64,000 nt of DNA from a bacterium (GTDB taxonomy: Bacteria > Desulfobacterota > Desulfocorpusculales > Desulfocorpusculum). The stretch spans positions 16,661 through 80,660 of the forward strand of contig JBBFLE010000002.1 of NCBI GenBank assembly GCA_037481695.1, read 5' to 3'. How positions within the stretch are numbered: position 1 is the stretch's first letter; each line of letters begins with the position of its first letter. Below the pieces are notes generated by a model, which saw only the letters and a list, made by a program, of their open reading frames with translations, was not told where the DNA came from and did no database searches. Made by a program: the position numbers and the translations under genes. This document shows positions 33,436 to 41,261 of the stretch, piece by piece.

Positions 33436-34353
33436 TCACTTCTGTTGGGCCCTCTGCTCCATGGCATGTAAGCGCTTGGAGCTGTACTCCTTTAATGCAT
33501 TGGCAAACTCTTTGCAGTCGCAGAAGCGATCATCGGGCCTCAGGGATATGGCCTTTAGAATTATCGCTTCCAGTTCCTTGTCCACCCTGGGATGGCACTG
33601 GGAGGGCATCTTGCTGAACATGCCCAGGGGCTCGCTTACCTTTCTCTGGCGCAGCTTTCCCACAGGCTCAGGATAAATGGGCAGAGTTCCCACTGCCATC
33701 TCAAAAAGTATTACCCCCACGGCATATATGTCCGCCCGGCCGTCTACCTCTTGGCTCATGGCCTGCTCAGGAGCCATGTAAAGAGGAGTGCCCAGGGCAC
33801 GGCCCTGGTCCAGATCTTCACCCCGAAGCTCTTTGGCTATACCAAAGTCTGAAAGCAGAACCCGGCTGGTCTTGGCCTCTAGGAGAATGTTGGCGGGTTT
33901 TATGTCACGATGAATCACTTCCTCTTCATGGGCATAGGAAAGAGCATCTAACACCTGCAAGAGGATCCTGATGCCCTCTCCCATAGGAATGAGGCGCTTG
34001 GAGGGAACCGGGTGTTTGCGCGCCCGCTCCAGGATCTGGGAGAGGGCCATGCCCTTGACCAGCTGCATCACCATGAAGTAGAGCTCTTCGGTCTCTCCCA
34101 CCTCGTAGATGGGGATGATGTGAGGATGGGTCAAGATGGCGGCTGTCTCAGCCTCCTGTCTGAACCTTGCCCCGGCCACAGGGTCTACTACCAGGGCCTT
34201 GGGCAACACCTTCACGGCTACAGGTCGCTTGAGGGTGGTCTGATAGCCCAGGCAAACTATGCCCATGCTGCCCCTGCCTAGTTCCTTTATGATCCTGCAG
34301 GTGCCCAAAGTTGAGCCCACCAAATGATCCACCGAGACGCGAGCCAAGGCCAT
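33436..34353 (-). CDS. Hanks-type serine/threonine protein kinase (kinase domain only)
   Basis: 305 aa with GRGSMGIV glycine loop, VAVK lysine, HRDIKPANILL catalytic loop, DFG and APE motifs. Confidence 0.9.
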   Translation of the reverse strand: MALARVSVDHLVGSTLGTCRIIKELGRGSMGIVCLGYQTTLKRPVAVKVLPKALVVDPVAGARFRQEAETAAILTHPHIIPIYEVGETEELYFMVMQLVKGMALSQILERARKHPVPSKRLIPMGEGIRILLQVLDALSYAHEEEVIHRDIKPANILLEAKTSRVLLSDFGIAKELRGEDLDQGRALGTPLYMAPEQAMSQEVDGRADIYAVGVILFEMAVGTLPIYPEPVGKLRQRKVSEPLGMFSKMPSQCHPRVDKELEAIILKAISLRPDDRFCDCKEFANALKEYSSKRLHAMEQRAQQK

Positions 34354-34400: not shown

Positions 34401-35000
34401 TCAAAGATCCCTTCTGTTTTCCAATGCCTTGCCCAGGGTCACCCTGTCTGCATACTGCAGGTCCCCTCCGGCCGGAAGCCCGTAAGCTATGCGCGTCACT
34501 CTGACCCCCAAGGGTTTGAGAAGCTTTGCCAGGTAAAGGGAAGTGGCCTCCCCTTCCACCGACGGGTTCAGGGCCAAGATCACTTCCCGAATCCCGCCGG
34601 CCTTCACACGCTCCATCAACTCTGTGATCTTAAGCTCTTGAGGCCCCACACCTTCCAGGGGGGATAGCACCCCCTGAAGCACATGGTAAAGCCCCTTGAA
34701 GCCGTGGCTGGTCTCGATGGCCATGAGATCACCCGGATCTTCCACCACGCAAAGCTGACCTGTGTGCCTGGAGGAGTCCTGACATACGCTGCAAAGCTCC
34801 TGGTCCGTGAAGTTGAAGCAAAGGGAGCAGGTCCGGATCTTGCGTTTGACCTCCATGATGGCTCTTGCCAATGCCTCCATTTCTTCTGTGGGGGATCTCA
34901 ATATAAAAAGGGCCAGTCTTGTGGCAGATTTCTCCCCCACGCCAGGAAGCTTTGTCAGGTTGCGAATCAGGTTCTCAACAGGCTTGGCATAAGAACTCAT
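34401..35000 (-). CDS. recR: recombination protein RecR
   Basis: 199 aa with helix-hairpin-helix N-terminus (LPGVGEKSATRLA), C4 zinc finger (CSLC...CSVC) and Toprim domain. Confidence 0.92.
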   Translation of the reverse strand: MSSYAKPVENLIRNLTKLPGVGEKSATRLALFILRSPTEEMEALARAIMEVKRKIRTCSLCFNFTDQELCSVCQDSSRHTGQLCVVEDPGDLMAIETSHGFKGLYHVLQGVLSPLEGVGPQELKITELMERVKAGGIREVILALNPSVEGEATSLYLAKLLKPLGVRVTRIAYGLPAGGDLQYADRVTLGKALENRRDL

Positions 35001-35486: not shown

Positions 35487-37112
35487 TCATTGGGAAAGCT
35501 CCTTGTCTGGCCCTGAAGCCTGCCTCACCTCCACCACCTTGGCTCCCAGCAGCTCTATGGCTTTCTGGACCATGGGATGATTCCTTGCCTCCAACTCTGC
35601 CATCCTTTGTTGCCTGAGATGGTTTTCTCTGCATTGAGGCTGGGAATCCAGCACAGCCACCACTTTCAATTTCCGGCCGAAGAACTCCATACAGAACTGC
35701 TCAAGGGTGCGAGTTTGCTCCCCCTGGGAGACCCTGTCCATATGAAATCTACTGGGAAAGCCCAGGCGAACCATATCGCCTTGGGAACATTCCATGAAAC
35801 TGGCCTGTTCCAGCACAGAGGCCAATGCAGGCTTCAGGACCTTCACATGCTCCAGAAAGGCCCCCCAGGTTTCCTTGTTGATATCCCTCGAGGGACTCTG
35901 CAATTTCTCCCAAGACTCTCCGCCAGCGGTCCCCTGCACGGGGCCTGAGGAAGCATTCAGGCTGGCCTGAAAGCCTGAGCTCAACTTGGCCAACCCCTCT
36001 AAGAGCTCCTCCATGTCTGCCACATGCTCCAAGGTGGCCATCCTGACCAATAGCATCTCCAGCACATACCGTGGGAAGGCCGAGCGGCGTATCTCCTCCT
36101 CTGCCTTGGCAAGTATGTCAAACCATAGCTGCAGGTCTTCTGCCGAGAGCTTATCTGCTTGCTCCTTGAGCGCAGCCACCTCGTGGTCCGCCAAGGGCAG
36201 GATCCTTGAGACCTCAGGAGTCACCTTGGCCACCAGAAGATTGCGAACGTGCTCTACAAGCTCATAGTAGAAGTGCTGGAGGGAGTGACCCAGATCAAAA
36301 AGCTCCTCTACTACCAAGAGACACCCCCTAGGGTCCTTGTTAATCAGGGCCTCGGAGGTACGGTAGAGCCATCTGCGATCCAGCACTCCCAGCACCTCCA
36401 TCACCGCACTCTGTTCTATTCTCTGGCCTGCATAGGCCACCAGCTGATCCAGAAGGCTTTGAGCATCTCTCAGGCTGCCCTGGGCCTCTCTGGCTACTGT
36501 GGCCAGCACTTCGGTGGGGGCATCTATGCTTTCCGCCGTGCAGATTCGCTGTAGGTGACTCACTATTTCCTTTAGGGATATCCGCCTGAAGTCGAATCTC
36601 TGGCACCTGGAGAGAATGGTGGCCGGAATCTTGTGCACCTCTGTGGTGGCAAACATGAAGACCACATGGGCTGGTGGTTCTTCCAGGGTTTTCAGCAGCG
36701 CATTGAAAGCCTGGGTGGAGAGCATGTGCACTTCGTCGATGATGTACACTCGGAACCGCCCTTTTGACGGCCTGTAACGAAGCCCCTCTCTTATGTCCCT
36801 TATGTTTTCAACGCTGGTGTGGGAAGCCCCGTCGATCTCCTGCACATCCATGGAGATCCCTTGGGCCACCTCCCTGCAGGATGTACAGCTCCCGCATGGT
36901 TCTGCAGTGGGACCAGACTCGCAGTTCAAGGCCTTGGCAAGTATTCTGGCTACCGTGGTCTTGCCCACTCCCCTGGGCCCGCTGAACAGATAGGCGTGGG
37001 CGATCCTCTCCTGCCGGATGGCGTTCTGGAGTGTGCGGGTGACATGACTCTGTCCCACCACTTCTTGGAAGGTCTGCGGCCTCCAACGACGGGCCAACAC
37101 CACGTATGCCAT
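35487..37112 (-). CDS. dnaX: DNA polymerase III subunit gamma/tau
   Basis: Start at the ATG at 37112 (MAYVVLARRWRPQTFQEVVGQ). Walker A GPRGVGKTT, zinc module CGSCTSC, DEVHML box. The track ORF extends upstream to 37364 but that prefix is non-conserved. Confidence 0.9.
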   Translation of the reverse strand: MAYVVLARRWRPQTFQEVVGQSHVTRTLQNAIRQERIAHAYLFSGPRGVGKTTVARILAKALNCESGPTAEPCGSCTSCREVAQGISMDVQEIDGASHTSVENIRDIREGLRYRPSKGRFRVYIIDEVHMLSTQAFNALLKTLEEPPAHVVFMFATTEVHKIPATILSRCQRFDFRRISLKEIVSHLQRICTAESIDAPTEVLATVAREAQGSLRDAQSLLDQLVAYAGQRIEQSAVMEVLGVLDRRWLYRTSEALINKDPRGCLLVVEELFDLGHSLQHFYYELVEHVRNLLVAKVTPEVSRILPLADHEVAALKEQADKLSAEDLQLWFDILAKAEEEIRRSAFPRYVLEMLLVRMATLEHVADMEELLEGLAKLSSGFQASLNASSGPVQGTAGGESWEKLQSPSRDINKETWGAFLEHVKVLKPALASVLEQASFMECSQGDMVRLGFPSRFHMDRVSQGEQTRTLEQFCMEFFGRKLKVVAVLDSQPQCRENHLRQQRMAELEARNHPMVQKAIELLGAKVVEVRQASGPDKELSQ

Positions 37113-37324
37113 GGCCCAGTTCCTCGCTACCCAACAGTGAGCCTTAACCAGGAAGACAAACAGGGAAAAGACCCTGCCGGTACAGGTGACCCTGCACACC
37201 CAAGTGATGATAAGGTCTTCCAAAGCCTCCAGCAAAATCGGGGCCGCCCTTGCATTGACCTCGAGTCCCCCATGACCCTTCGGCCCATGCCATTGGGGCC
37301 CCTCAGAGGATCCTTCCAGGTGGG

Positions 37325-37460
37325 GCGGGTGGACAGGGTTGATAGCTAGGCACCCCTGCAGCACACGAGGAAGTTACGGCCGCTGCTTCCTCCCGGACCT
37401 GACGGGGTTGGTAACCCCTCGTCGCACAGGACCCAGCTATCAACTCTGCCCACCCGCTGC
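37325..37460 (-). ncRNA. ffs: signal recognition particle RNA (small 4.5S-type)
   Basis: The minus strand reads ...GUCAGGUCCGGGAGGAAGCAGCGG..., matching the conserved SRP RNA domain IV motif. Flanked by complementary arms (GGGUGGGCAGAGUUGAUAGCUGGG / CCUAGCUAUCAACCCUGUCCACCCGCC) forming the long closing helix. Upstream of dnaX as in many bacteria. Ends approximate to about 5 nt. Confidence 0.7.
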
Positions 37461-37612
37461 CTTCTGCACGGTCGGCTTTCCGGACCCACCCACCGCATTC
37501 TCAGAGACCGGCCCATGAGCTCACAGTCTCAAGATCATGGGCCATTTACAAAGCCCAATCTCTGGAATCGGCACGAGGATCTTGCAATTGCCGGCCTTTT
37601 GCTTGAAAACAC

Positions 37613-37707
37613 TGGCGGAGAGAGAGGGATTCGAACCCTCGGTACACCTTTTTGGATGTACACACGATTTCCAATCGTGCCCCTTCAGCCAACTCGGGCA
37701 TCTCTCC
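37613..37707 (-). tRNA. tRNA-Ser (anticodon GGA), type II with long variable arm, CCA encoded
   Basis: Minus strand folds as acceptor GGAGAGA/UCUCUCC, anticodon stem CACGA/UCGUG with loop UUGGAAA (GGA), long variable arm, T-loop GGUUCGAAUCC, discriminator G and 3' CCA. Confidence 0.85.
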
Positions 37708-37728
37708 ATGAAAGCGCATGCTTTTCCA

Positions 37729-37822
37729 TGGCGGAGAGAGAGGGATTCGAACCCCCGGTCCACCTCGCGGTGGACAACTGATTTCGAATCAGCCGCCTTC
37801 AGCCAAACTCGGCCATCTCTCC
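37729..37822 (-). tRNA. tRNA-Ser (anticodon CGA), type II with long variable arm, CCA encoded
   Basis: Minus strand has the same acceptor and T arms as the neighbouring tRNA, anticodon stem GCUGA/UCAGU with loop UUCGAAA (CGA), long variable arm. Confidence 0.85.
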
Positions 37823-38310
37823 GTCTTGTAAAGCAGTTTTTGCCTCTGTCTCAACCTCTCAAAAAAGGAGCTCATCAGGCCTCTGCACTGGGCCTCCAGC
37901 ACTCCGCAGTTGACCTCCAGCCTGTGATTGAGCCTTCCATCGGAGTGTATGGAGTACCTGGAGCCCATGGCCCCTGCCTTTGGATCAGCGCACCCATAGA
38001 CCACCCGCTCCAGCCTGGCCAGGTGAAGTGCTCCCGTACACATGACACAAGGCTCCACGGTCACGTAGAGCCTGGCCCCCAAGAGCCTGTAATTGCCTTT
38101 TCTGGAGCAGGCATCCCTCAAGGCCAAAATTTCTGCATGGGCCGTGGGATCACAGAGCTCCTCACAACGGTTGTGGGCCCTTGCCACAACCTCCCCTTCC
38201 ATGACCAGCACTGCACCTACTGGGACCTCGCCCTCTTGGAAGGCCTCCATTGCCTGCTGAAGAGCCATCCTCATGTAATCCTCATCCCTCATCTCCTGCG
38301 GCCTATCCAT
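37789..38310 (-). CDS. tadA: tRNA-specific adenosine(34) deaminase
   Basis: 173 aa with CDA-fold zinc motifs HAEILALR and PCVMCTGAL. The ORF as drawn has its last ~11 codons inside the 5' part of tRNA-Ser(CGA). Confidence 0.88.
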   Translation of the reverse strand: MDRPQEMRDEDYMRMALQQAMEAFQEGEVPVGAVLVMEGEVVARAHNRCEELCDPTAHAEILALRDACSRKGNYRLLGARLYVTVEPCVMCTGALHLARLERVVYGCADPKAGAMGSRYSIHSDGRLNHRLEVNCGVLEAQCRGLMSSFFERLRQRQKLLYKTERWPSLAEGG

Positions 38311-38885
38311 GGTGGCCCCGGTGAGAAACCCTGAAGCTCTCCTCAGATCTTGGCTCCCCCTTTTTTGTCAGGCGGAAGTGAACTCAGAATAGATCAGCCC
38401 CCCCCGAAAATCAACCCCAGCAGGCCTCACCCTGGAGGCTGCCCCGCCAGGGAAGCCCCTCAAGGAGCCTCCCCCGGCCTGTGGCCTTTGGGGCCCTGCA
38501 AGCCCGTTTTTTGAGTGCAAGGCCACACCTGTTGCGGCTCCAGTGGATGGGAAAGCTCTGTACAGGCCAGCTGGTTCCCCAAAGGACTCCAAAAAGGCAA
38601 AGCTCCGGCATGGGCAGCAATCCCAACACACTCCACCAGATCCCGGGCTTTGGGGCCATCTCCAGCATTTCTTCTTGCCACAAGCCCTGAGAGGGCCTGT
38701 GGCGCAAAACCCAAGAGCAGGCTCTGGACTTCTGAAATGGTCTGGGCCAAGCACTTCTCTAACCCAGGATCCCTGGGCCTTTTCTGATTCCCAATAAAGC
38801 CAGTCTGAGGTTTGCAAGGACTTGAGGATTCAGCTATAAAGTAAGGCTAGATAAGCGTCAAGGTCATTTCCAAGCTGGAGCGCTC

Positions 38886-41261
38886 ATGGGCCCGGAGCCT
38901 AAGGAACCCACCAGCCATTGCCTCATCAATTCCAGCCTGGATCTCCTGCTTAGGCTGGATCAGCCAGCTCTCATGCTCCTGGATTCATCGGGCAGAGTGC
39001 TCACAGCCAACCAAGGAGCTTCCCAATTGACAGGTTTCTCTCCCGCAGAAATTCTTGGCCTGGACTTTCTTTCGCTATTCCAACCCCAGGATCGAGAAAA
39101 CATAACACGCTGCTTGCGCCAAGGCAGCCCCCCAGGGTCCACGCAGGCGGATCTGATAACTGCCCGGGGGAAAAAGGTGCCAGTAGGGATCTGCTGCTCT
39201 TCGGGCTCCAGCCAGACCTGGGTGGCTCTATGGGATCAGGAGGAACTCAAGAGGTTACATAGGCTCGCCCAGGAGGCTGCAGACAGGGCGGAAAAGATAG
39301 CGGGGATGGGTGATATTGGAATTCTCATCTATGACCAGGACTTCCGCATAGAGTTTGCCAACGAGATGGCTGGAGAAATCCTAGGCCTTCCCTCTCGTTC
39401 TCTGTTGGGAATGGAGATAACCCGCTTCTTGGGCCGAATACACCGAATACAGCTAAAGGACCTTCACTCTCCTCTGCACCCGGATGGTCCCAGAAGGGTT
39501 CGAATGGAGATGCCACTGGAGAGGCCCGACAACACGAAAAAGCTGGTAGAGATTTGTCTCTCCATGATCAGGACCCCTTTGGGCCAAAGCCACACCTACG
39601 CTTACCTGAGGGACCTGACCGAGCGGGTTCAGATGGAGATGGAGCTTCGCAAGACCAACGAGTTTCTGCAGAACGTTATCCGAAGCTCTGTGGACGGTAT
39701 AATAGCCGCAGACATGAAGGGCAACATAATAATCTTTAACGAGGGAGCTGAGCGTCTCTTGGGTTACAGAGCAGAAGAGGTGATCGGAAAGATTCACATC
39801 ACTCAGCTCTACCCCCCTGGGGTGGCCAAGAAGATAATGCGTAGGCTCAGGAGCGACACCTATGGACCCAGGGGGAAATTGCCCACAACCCCCACCACCA
39901 TAGTGGCCAAGACGGGCGAACACATTCCTGTGAGGATCTCTGCGGCCATAGTTTACGAGGGTGAAAGGGAAATAGCCTCTGTGGGAATCTTCCGCGACCT
40001 TCGAGAGCGCATAAAGATGCAACAGCAACTCGAAGACACTTACCGCCAGCTTCTCCACTCTGAGAAGCTGGCCTCCCTGGGAAAGCTGGCAGCAGGGGTT
40101 GCCCATGAACTGAATAATCCCCTTGGTGGGATACTCATGTATGCCAACATGCTCCTGGAGCAGGCGGCAGATGGCCCCATGGCCCAAGATTTGAAGGTGA
40201 TTGTTGAGCAGGCTCTGCGGTGCAAAGAAATAGTAAGGGGTCTACTGGATTTTGCCAGACGCCGAGGCGAAGAAAGGGTCCGGGTGGACCTGAACAAAGA
40301 TGTGATAGAGAAGTGTATAGCTATCATGAGCAAGCAAGCCATGTTCCTCAATATCCAGTTGGAGTGCGAATTGCCTTCGGATCTTCCTCCCATAGCAGCA
40401 GACCCAGATCAGTTGAGCCAGGTATTCACCAACCTCATAGTCAATGCCGTGGACGCCATGGAGGGCAAAGGCACCCTTCGCATAAGAACTTGGGCAGAGG
40501 GAAGCCCAGCACAGCTCCATGCCGAGGTTTCGGATACAGGCAGTGGCATACCAGAGGATTATCTGCCCCGTATCTTTGATCCATTTTTCACCACCAAGGA
40601 GGTGGGCAAGGGCACTGGTCTGGGTCTGAGCATAGCGTACGGCATCGTGCGGCGGCTGGGAGGTGATATTCAGGTGAGGAGTCGGGCAGGAGAGGGAACC
40701 ACCTTCCACCTTCGTTTCCCCCTGGAGCCAGCCTCGGAAATTCCTGCCGAGGTGGAGGAGGGGGTGGCAGGCATAAGGGATCAGGATGGCCGCTTCATAC
40801 AGGTGGTGCTGGCGGGTGAAAGGACCCTCACGAGACTTCTGTCTTTCTATGATGCCTTCCAACCCAAGGGCGCCTTTGAGGGCCTTCCGCCTGCAGCCAA
40901 GAGGGAGCGTCGAAAATGGGTAATAGGCCTGATGGGTGGGTGGCGCAACTTCCTGCTCTTGGACGGTGATCAGGTAGTAGGCCATGTAGGGGTGACCCTT
41001 GGAGAGTCGGACCTGGAGGAGGTAATAATCTTTCTCCGCCATGAGTATAGGGGAAAGGGGATCGGCAGTAGGGCCCTTCGCCACGTGGGGTCCCTGCTGG
41101 CAAGGGAGGGATGCCGTAGGCTATGGCTCACGGTGGAGTCTACCAACACGGTTGCAATAAGGTGCTTCCAAAAGGCAGGGTTTCGTTTCACCTCCAGGGC
41201 CATTGAGCCCGAAATGGAGATGGTCATGGATCTTGGGGAGTGGGGGCATGGAGAGACCTGA
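38886..41261 (+). CDS. PAS-domain sensor histidine kinase with C-terminal GNAT acetyltransferase-like domain (fusion)
   Basis: 791 aa: two or three PAS-like units, HisKA (GVAHELNNPLGGI), HATPase_c (VSDTGSGIPEDYLPRIFDPFFTTKEVGKGTGLGL), then ~150 aa with GNAT motif A (LRHEYRGKGIGSRALRHV) and beta-strand pattern. Confidence 0.8.
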   Translation: MGPEPKEPTSHCLINSSLDLLLRLDQPALMLLDSSGRVLTANQGASQLTGFSPAEILGLDFLSLFQPQDRENITRCLRQGSPPGSTQADLITARGKKVPVGICCSSGSSQTWVALWDQEELKRLHRLAQEAADRAEKIAGMGDIGILIYDQDFRIEFANEMAGEILGLPSRSLLGMEITRFLGRIHRIQLKDLHSPLHPDGPRRVRMEMPLERPDNTKKLVEICLSMIRTPLGQSHTYAYLRDLTERVQMEMELRKTNEFLQNVIRSSVDGIIAADMKGNIIIFNEGAERLLGYRAEEVIGKIHITQLYPPGVAKKIMRRLRSDTYGPRGKLPTTPTTIVAKTGEHIPVRISAAIVYEGEREIASVGIFRDLRERIKMQQQLEDTYRQLLHSEKLASLGKLAAGVAHELNNPLGGILMYANMLLEQAADGPMAQDLKVIVEQALRCKEIVRGLLDFARRRGEERVRVDLNKDVIEKCIAIMSKQAMFLNIQLECELPSDLPPIAADPDQLSQVFTNLIVNAVDAMEGKGTLRIRTWAEGSPAQLHAEVSDTGSGIPEDYLPRIFDPFFTTKEVGKGTGLGLSIAYGIVRRLGGDIQVRSRAGEGTTFHLRFPLEPASEIPAEVEEGVAGIRDQDGRFIQVVLAGERTLTRLLSFYDAFQPKGAFEGLPPAAKRERRKWVIGLMGGWRNFLLLDGDQVVGHVGVTLGESDLEEVIIFLRHEYRGKGIGSRALRHVGSLLAREGCRRLWLTVESTNTVAIRCFQKAGFRFTSRAIEPEMEMVMDLGEWGHGET

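Follow-up and report, generated by a model that had tools for sequence, protein, structure and literature searches.

The tadA gene of a Desulfocorpusculum genome, which encodes a tRNA adenosine(34) deaminase, has no stop codon of its own; its reading frame continues for 34 nucleotides (nt) into an intact tRNA-Ser(CGA) gene on the same strand, and ends within the 5' half of the tRNA. The gene lies in a 64,000-nt stretch of DNA (contig JBBFLE010000002.1 of assembly GCA_037481695.1, positions 16,661 to 80,660), which was analysed as a whole and is referred to below as the window. In this paper, we report that the tadA/tRNA-Ser overlap is real and recurrent, having arisen in several bacterial lineages, and that it has apparently not been described previously; its functional consequence is probably small.

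The tadA reading frame ends inside an intact tRNA gene

The genes concerned are all on the minus strand of the window, in the order tadA, tRNA-Ser(CGA), tRNA-Ser(GGA), signal recognition particle (SRP) RNA, dnaX, ybaB and recR. The elements around the junction are as follows.

37789..38310, minus strand: tadA coding sequence (CDS), 173 amino acids (aa), tRNA adenosine(34) deaminase, without its own stop codon (from the open reading frame (ORF) listing and NCBIfam)
37789..37822, minus strand: the overlap, 34 nt, corresponding to tRNA nucleotides 1-34 (5' strand of the acceptor stem, D arm and 5' strand of the anticodon stem), which tadA reads as ...T-ERWPSLAEGG-stop
37729..37822, minus strand: tRNA-Ser(CGA), of class II and intact; its variable arm is long and its CCA is encoded (ARAGORN, RF00005)
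37708..37728, minus strand: spacer of 21 nt between the two tRNA genes, too short for a promoter or a terminator (ARAGORN and sequence)
37613..37707, minus strand: tRNA-Ser(GGA), CCA encoded, 84% identical to the CGA gene (ARAGORN, RF00005)

The stop codon of tadA (TGA, 37791..37789) coincides with nucleotides 32-34 of tRNA-Ser(CGA), with which the 5' strand of the anticodon stem ends, and the third base of codon 163 is nucleotide 1 of the tRNA. Inspection of the sequence revealed no in-frame stop upstream of 37791 in the tadA ORF, and the C-terminal peptide of TadA, when read to the internal UGA, is ...LLYKTERWPSLAEGG. An earlier note on this DNA, made without database searches, had placed the tadA stop at 37789, 34 nt inside tRNA-Ser(CGA); this is exact to the base by the ORF, ARAGORN and Rfam alike, and the covariance model puts the 5' end of the tRNA upstream of the tadA stop. 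Any stop-bearing tadA mRNA necessarily includes at least the first 34 nt of tRNA-Ser(CGA). Two of the three reading frames through this tRNA meet a stop within 24 or 34 nt, and the third stays open for ~300 nt; this fits the occurrence of short tails in frames 0 and 2 as well as the reading through of a whole tRNA in two of the relatives described below (L088 and L089). On the opposite strand, a 265-aa ORF (37537-38334, plus strand) covers the two tRNAs and the greater part of tadA in antisense, and contains translated T-arm sequence (EREGFEP, RERDSNP); this ORF is spurious, and a naive gene caller might report it.

The window contains exactly two tRNA genes according to ARAGORN, both on the minus strand, with the anticodons GGA and CGA for serine, and the same search found no tRNA-Arg gene in the 64 kb. 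The tRNA family model RF00005 matches both genes over their full length, with scores of 55.3 bits for tRNA-Ser(GGA) and 54.2 bits for tRNA-Ser(CGA) against a gathering score of 29. Furthermore, tRNA-Ser(CGA) of the window is 96-100% identical in relatives whose TadA proteins are 65-97% identical, and in a set of 13 tRNA-Ser(CGA) genes at tadA junctions (ten overlapped by the tadA ORF, one abutting its stop and two spaced controls) compensatory changes were seen in 16 of the 27 stem pairs. Since the stem pairs covary and the tRNA is more conserved than TadA, the overlapped tRNAs are, on sequence grounds, functional genes and not remnants.

The fold of TadA is predicted to be complete before the tRNA-encoded tail

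The protein is identified as TadA by the NCBIfam equivalog NF008113, which scores 177.7 bits (cutoff 150) over residues 5-163 and covers profile positions 3-161 of 165; it also matches the Pfam families PF14437 (MafB19-deam) and PF00383 (dCMP_cyt_deam_1, 99.1 bits). The residues of the zinc motifs HAE and PCxxC, i.e. H58, A59, E60, P87, C88 and C91, are invariant in an alignment of 30 sequences. The AlphaFold2 model has a mean predicted local distance difference test (pLDDT) score of 92.4, and its last helix, predicted at residues 139-160, shows that the C-terminal helix of the TadA fold, which contacts the anticodon arm of the tRNA, is present. Beyond this helix the mean pLDDT falls to 53 for residues 161-170 and 49 for residues 171-173. 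The solved TadA structures 7cph, 2nx8, 1wwr, 2b3j and 1z3a align at E-values from 1e-46 to 8e-39; these orthologues align up to query residues 155-166 and end a few residues later, at the equivalent of ~155-167.

Residues 164-173, ERWPSLAEGG, are the translated 5' half of the tRNA. By the structural model, the TadA fold is thus complete by about residue 160, before the tRNA-encoded part begins; because the fold ends there and the solved orthologues end at ~155-167, ERWPSLAEGG is in all likelihood a dispensable tail, predicted to be disordered, on a complete enzyme. It had been suggested in the earlier note that either mRNA 3' end formation and tRNA processing are coupled or the functional TadA ends earlier. 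The latter idea holds for the fold and for the ends of the orthologues but not for the reading frame, in which there is no earlier stop; both ideas are reasonable, and they are not mutually exclusive. A functional C-terminal motif was considered as an explanation of the tail and rejected: the sequence of the tail is dictated by the tRNA and by the frame in which it is read, its length is variable, close relatives lack it, and disorder is predicted for it.

The start of tadA is ambiguous, as M1 (38310) has no obvious Shine-Dalgarno sequence and M13 (38274) has GAGGA at a suitable distance upstream. One member of the database cluster is a TadA of 161 aa, and the choice of start leaves the 3' overlap unaffected. 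In the NCBI annotation, the 173-aa protein and the proteins with a GEVPKWS tail are named plainly as TadA, without comment.

Conservation and origin of the overlap

For the comparison with relatives, the 120 best database matches to TadA were collected, the DNA of representatives was retrieved, and their tadA junctions were mapped. Translated-tRNA tails occur in 19 of these 120 relatives, of which 12 end in ERWPS..., five in GEVPKWS and one in GEMAESG, and one reads through to the T-arm signature GSNP. The mapped junctions (loci labelled L; TadA identity relative to the window) are the following.

L001: TadA 97% identical; 34-nt overlap, the same as in the window
L082 and L083 (two separate metagenomes): TadA 78% identical; 25-nt overlap, with TAA in the D loop
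L084 and L085: TadA 64% identical; 34-nt overlap
L086: TadA 69% identical; 24-nt overlap in a different frame
L087 (Thermodesulfobacteriota): TadA 58% identical; 24-nt overlap
L088 and L089: TadA 59% identical; the tadA ORF runs through the entire tRNA and ends 17 nt beyond it
L090/L091 and L093: TadA 65% and 73% identical, respectively; own stop directly after ...RLR(A), followed by a spacer of 27-28 nt

In a neighbour-joining tree of the deaminase domains, the window and the sequences P0001-P0008 form one clade in which every member carries a tRNA-encoded tail; in this clade the overlap is thus fixed across 73-97% TadA identity. The remaining overlapping sequences are scattered in the tree among sequences with their own stops, and this distribution, when the frames are counted, implies at least about six independent origins of the overlap. 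As to how it arose, the window has 26 sense nt where L090 and L093 have their spacer of 27-28 nt. Since these close relatives keep a stop codon followed by a spacer that matches the 26 sense nt of the window, the overlap is likely to have originated by loss of the stop codon and not by deletion. A search of metagenome contigs for further members of the clade yielded none besides the known FWPU01 contig, the other matches being distant TadA genes.

The two nested cases come from JGI metagenomes (3300056917 and 3300056896), with tadA at 2243-2806 in L088 and 1965-2528 in L089. In L088, an intact tRNA-Ser(CGA) occupies 2700-2789 inside the tadA ORF, whose stop lies 17 nt past the tRNA and 15 nt before a methyltransferase gene. 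Full nesting of a tRNA as in these two loci has one earlier report, that of selB/selC.

Tight tadA/tRNA-Ser junctions in a broad sample of genomes

We also surveyed a broad genome sample, made up of the 80 best among the first 600 matches to the pattern (best match 58% identical); this is not a random sample, so the frequencies are only indicative. The census covers the tadA junctions of 75 species, 75 of the 80 loci being usable. At 30 of these 75 loci, tadA is followed on its own strand, at a distance of at most 400 nt, by a tRNA-Ser gene with the anticodon CGA or GGA; the distance from the tadA stop to the tRNA is distributed as follows.

Overlap: 5 loci
0-30 nt: 12 loci
31-100 nt: 8 loci
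More than 100 nt: 5 loci

The overlaps in this sample measure 57 nt in a member of the Aquificota, 22 and 10 nt in two Blastocatellia, 22 nt in Isosphaeraceae, and 1-2 nt in Thermodesulfobacteriota. Across all loci, the overlap ranges from 1 to 107 nt, and all three reading frames are used.

The two tRNA-Ser genes are old paralogues

In the earlier note, the two tRNA-Ser genes were held to share their acceptor, D and T arms and to have arisen by duplication and anticodon divergence, and both statements stand only in part. The two genes indeed agree fully in the acceptor stem, the discriminator base and the CCA. A single position separates their T arms, where one has a G.U pair and the other an A-U pair; the D stems are distinguished by one compensated pair change and the D loops by one base, and there are differences in the anticodon stem and the variable arm as well, the overall identity being 84%. 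Isoacceptors charged by one seryl-tRNA synthetase usually share their acceptor and T arms. In the broad sample, tadA is adjoined by a pair of CGA and GGA tRNA-Ser genes at 15 loci, which belong to several phyla; the pair may stand in either order, and its two genes are 61-83% identical within a genome. The inter-tRNA spacing of 21 nt of the window recurs in L001 and L082. Given that the CGA/GGA pair stands beside tadA across phyla, the two genes are ancient paralogues, with the pair of the window at the similar end of the normal range. Duplication and anticodon divergence can thus be upheld in deep time only, and a recent duplication was rejected on the same grounds.

In the minimum-energy fold of the precursor (37600-37900, minus strand), the 5' acceptor strand of the first tRNA pairs with the 3' acceptor strand of the second. 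By this model, a dicistronic tRNA precursor could misfold, given identical acceptor stems 21 nt apart.

Downstream genes and flanks

The remainder of the block on the minus strand is made up of the following features.

37325..37457, minus strand: SRP RNA of the 4.5S type; the Rfam core is 37341-37438 and the hairpin is ~16-19 bp longer on each side
37173..37186, minus strand: weak terminator-like hairpin followed by a T run, 3' of the SRP RNA; its stem is 5 bp long, and the match is to the consensus only
35487..37112, minus strand: dnaX, likely start ATG at 37112 (MAYVVLARRWRPQTF...); the L082 orthologue is called with 542 aa
35021..35341, minus strand: ybaB (PF02575, 104.4 bits)
34401..35000, minus strand: recR, with RecR helix-hairpin-helix, zinc finger, Toprim and C-terminal domains

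The call of an SRP RNA in the earlier note is borne out by RF00169, which matches 37341-37438 on the minus strand with 68.6 bits (gathering score 40, E = 4e-13) over model positions 1-97 of 97; this whole-model match spans the region of the conserved GGAA tetraloop. The hairpin of ~133 nt folds with -96.4 kcal/mol (z = -5.0). Six members of the clade retain its extended stem, in which some compensatory changes have occurred; the additional stem could be either part of a longer mature RNA or a processing stem. Several weak Rfam matches that lie over the tRNAs and the SRP hairpin (plastid psbI-rps4, MIR1437, MIR1858 and sX4) scored below their gathering thresholds and were discarded. The terminator-like site at 37173..37186 is the only one on the minus strand between tadA and dnaX. 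The longest dnaX ORF starts with GTG at 37364, comprises 625 aa and crosses the SRP RNA gene; its part upstream of the ATG at 37112 is almost certainly untranslated.

The synteny of tadA, tRNA-Ser, SRP RNA, dnaX, ybaB and recR, which had also been claimed, was found in the DNA of the relatives in the same order. Directly after recR lies a Ser/Thr protein kinase gene (33436-34353, minus strand), as it does in L001 and L082; this gene extends the conserved block past the classical dnaX-ybaB-recR set. Divergent from tadA, at 38886-41261 on the plus strand, is a gene for a sensor histidine kinase of 791 aa, in which several PAS domains, HisKA and HATPase_c are joined to a C-terminal GNAT acetyltransferase domain (residues ~684-767); the fusion is uncommon, and it is conserved in L001.

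Proposed mechanism and alternative explanations

The reading that we favour, and hold to be somewhat more probable than all else taken together, combines a tight same-strand gene block, the loss of a stop codon, a transcript with two fates and a nearly neutral outcome; within it, we infer the stop loss, the co-transcription, the generation of a non-stop mRNA by ribonuclease P (RNase P) and the near-neutrality. tadA and the two tRNA-Ser genes would probably form one transcription unit, which probably continues into the SRP RNA. The native tadA stop, which stands just after '...FFxRLR' in relatives, would have been lost in the lineage of the window, and translation would since run across the former spacer of ~27 nt into the tRNA and halt at the first in-frame stop (UGA). 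The tRNA would stay fully functional, and TadA would gain a short, disordered and probably harmless tail. A transcript that escapes processing would be translated to the internal UGA and yield the 173-aa TadA. Cleavage by RNase P at the 5' end of the tRNA (between 37823 and 37822) would release the tRNA, and would leave a tadA mRNA that ends two bases into codon 163 without a stop codon. Such a non-stop mRNA would be handed to ribosome rescue, either to tagging and degradation through transfer-messenger RNA (tmRNA) or to a release of the ArfA/ArfB type, the latter giving a 162-aa protein with the whole fold. The net effect would most likely be a mild, nearly neutral dampening of TadA output and not a dedicated switch.

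The coupling of tadA 3' end formation with tRNA processing is one that we infer because there is no spacer, promoter or terminator between tadA and the tRNA. A consensus scan for sigma-70-like promoters found none on either strand in 37000-38900, although the sigma-70 consensus may not fit this host. In the clade, no conserved motif was found upstream of the tRNA, the 60 nt concerned showing no conservation beyond coding constraint. A candidate promoter picked out by eye (TTGAGA, 18 nt, TACAAG) was rejected, as it ends 2 nt before nucleotide 1 of the tRNA, which is too close for a complete tRNA to be made, and it is not conserved in the clade either. As the first tRNA follows tadA without a spacer and the second follows the first after 21 nt, with neither a promoter nor a conserved motif found, co-transcription of the tRNAs with tadA appears probable. 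The spacer from tRNA-Ser(GGA) to the SRP hairpin is ~155 nt in the window (37458-37612) and only ~30-45 nt in L093, L084 and L086; because the second tRNA is so near the SRP hairpin in these three relatives, the arrangement suggests that tadA, both tRNAs and the SRP RNA belong to one processed transcript in the lineage of the window. Close relatives have an ordinary stop, and the overlap length, the frame and the tail vary freely; we therefore think it likelier that the overlap is tolerated than that it is designed.

Several points weigh against this reading. A promoter unlike the sigma-70 consensus could lie inside tadA and make most of the tRNA independently, and the sigma-70 scan may be inapplicable to this host. 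That RNase P outcompetes translation and that tmRNA acts on the tadA message are proposals drawn from the DNA sequence. The persistence of the overlap through the clade, down to ~73% identity, could mean that it is selected and not neutral. Finally, the broad sample is not random, and its frequencies give an indication only.

The possibility of independent expression, which we regard as unlikely, takes up the first of these points: the tRNAs would be made mainly from a promoter in the 3' part of tadA, with tadA mRNA as a rarer read-through product on which translation reaches the internal UGA ahead of processing, and the overlap would have essentially no effect on TadA or the tRNA. It agrees with the fact that tRNA and SRP RNA genes are usually transcribed far more strongly than the gene of a low-abundance enzyme, and ribosomes are able to unwind structured RNA; moreover, the promoter scan was limited to sigma-70-like sites, a consensus that may not be that of the host. 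However, no promoter-like site was seen in the region 37000-38900, the 60 nt upstream of the tRNA lack conservation in the clade other than that due to coding, and any tadA mRNA that bears a stop would still hold the 5' half of the tRNA, and so would be a potential substrate of RNase P. Another explanation, that a sequencing or assembly error removed the stop, or that the tRNA is a decayed remnant caught by the ORF, has some initial appeal in that most of the assemblies concerned, for the window and for its relatives, come from metagenomes, and tRNA remnants inside ORFs are known, e.g. the selC remnant in Sinorhizobium selB (PMC8124441). Yet the same junction is found in independent assemblies or samples (L001; L082 and L083; L084 and L085), the tRNA is full-length at 54 bits with its CCA encoded, it is conserved at 96-100% where TadA is at 65-97%, and its stem pairs covary, so that an artefact is extremely improbable and effectively refuted.

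There is also the explanation that the overlap is a selected regulatory device, in which translation of TadA competes with maturation of tRNA-Ser for the same transcript, and which would tie the TadA level to tRNA-processing capacity or to ribosome-rescue load in the manner of arfA. We consider this quite unlikely, and we are correspondingly doubtful of its evolutionary form, i.e. that the stop loss was selected, with TadA output depending on whether translation or tRNA processing comes first, and on trans-translation. The fixation of the overlap in every sampled member of the clade (73-97% TadA identity) and its repeated origin speak for selection, as does the tightness of the junction in many phyla, with a gap of at most 30 nt, overlaps included, at 17 of the 30 junctions of the broad sample. 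The same model has been put forward for selB/selC (PMC8124441), and arfA provides an earlier example of regulation by way of a non-stop mRNA (PMC10107115). Against selection, L090 and L093 do well with a stop codon and a spacer of 27-28 nt, and the stop position, the frame and the tail length vary freely, with overlaps from 1 to 107 nt. In addition, there is no obvious feedback logic, as the substrate of TadA is tRNA-Arg(ACG), in which it acts on A34, and not tRNA-Ser. An action of TadA on the overlapped tRNA itself was rejected, as the anticodons CGA (with C34) and GGA offer no A34 to deaminate.

Significance and comparison with known systems

Same-strand overlaps of a CDS and a tRNA gene have rarely been reported in bacteria, and the sole described case that we found is selB/selC. 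Our literature search found nothing on a tadA/tRNA-Ser overlap, the apparent match PMC7387457 only listing the genes in a table. tadA/tRNA-Ser is a second such gene pair, found in Aquificota, Acidobacteriota, Planctomycetota, Thermodesulfobacteriota and the lineage of the window. Some annotation pipelines drop CDSs that overlap tRNAs, and this filtering may partly explain why so few overlaps have been reported. For annotation, a practical rule is that a TadA ending in ...ERWPSLA(EGG), ...GEMAESG or ...GEVPKWS carries a translated tRNA and no real domain. tadA encodes an essential housekeeping enzyme, and the overlap offers a natural system for asking what becomes of an mRNA whose stop codon is removed by RNase P. 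If the overlap is merely tolerated, as is likelier, it would illustrate that the loss of a stop is cheap when the D loop or the anticodon stem of a tRNA provides a new one a few codons further on; if it were selected, it would be a second and phylogenetically widespread case in bacteria of control by a tRNA embedded in a CDS, after selB/selC.

With regard to gene order, the window resembles Bacillus subtilis, where the order is tadA-scr-dnaX-yaaK-recR, the order and the strand being the same; in B. subtilis, however, the genes are separate, each with its own stop, and no tRNA is known to lie between tadA and the SRP RNA gene scr.

The closest comparison is with selB, whose ORFs in Alphaproteobacteria, in a Nitrospirae lineage and in Dyella/Luteibacter either enclose selC, the gene for tRNA-Sec, or overlap part of it (Mukai 2021, Int J Mol Sci 22:4605, PMC8124441). 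The selB/selC overlap is conserved within clades, and relatives carry a stop before the tRNA; it has been proposed that tRNA processing leaves a non-stop mRNA, so that the two products are alternatives, a proposal that is hypothetical there too (PMC8124441). Like selB, tadA has an intact tRNA gene on the same strand under the 3' end of its ORF, with the extension of the protein being translated tRNA; it shows both stops inside the tRNA and, in L088 and L089, full nesting, and the overlap is kept within clades while some close relatives have a stop before the tRNA. Unlike selB/selC, the protein and tRNA families are different, and the tadA case occurs in several phyla and in all three frames. 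Furthermore, SelB binds the tRNA that its gene overlaps, which provides a homeostatic rationale, whereas no such link is evident for TadA.

In mitochondria, tRNA-Lys is nested in cox1 of Armadillidium vulgare (cited in PMC8124441), and non-stop mRNAs are known (PMC9674279). As in mitochondrial tRNA punctuation, excision of the tRNA at the tadA junction would set the 3' end of the mRNA, the overlap would make the two products alternatives, and non-stop mRNAs would be possible. Mitochondria, unlike the tadA case, restore stops by polyadenylation and are under strong compaction pressure; tadA lies on a bacterial chromosome with an intergenic region of 575 nt right beside it. In E. coli, the tRNA gene leuU is located directly 3' of the secG CDS in one transcript and its tRNA is freed by RNase P; the position of the tRNA directly downstream of a CDS is the same as for tadA, but secG keeps its own stop. 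In the case of arfA, a cut by RNase III at a hairpin generates a non-stop mRNA, and tmRNA controls the resulting product; the nuclease there is RNase III acting on a hairpin, whereas for tadA we propose RNase P acting on a tRNA. Mitochondrial punctuation, secG-leuU and arfA may therefore be regarded as functional analogues only of the tadA/tRNA-Ser overlap.

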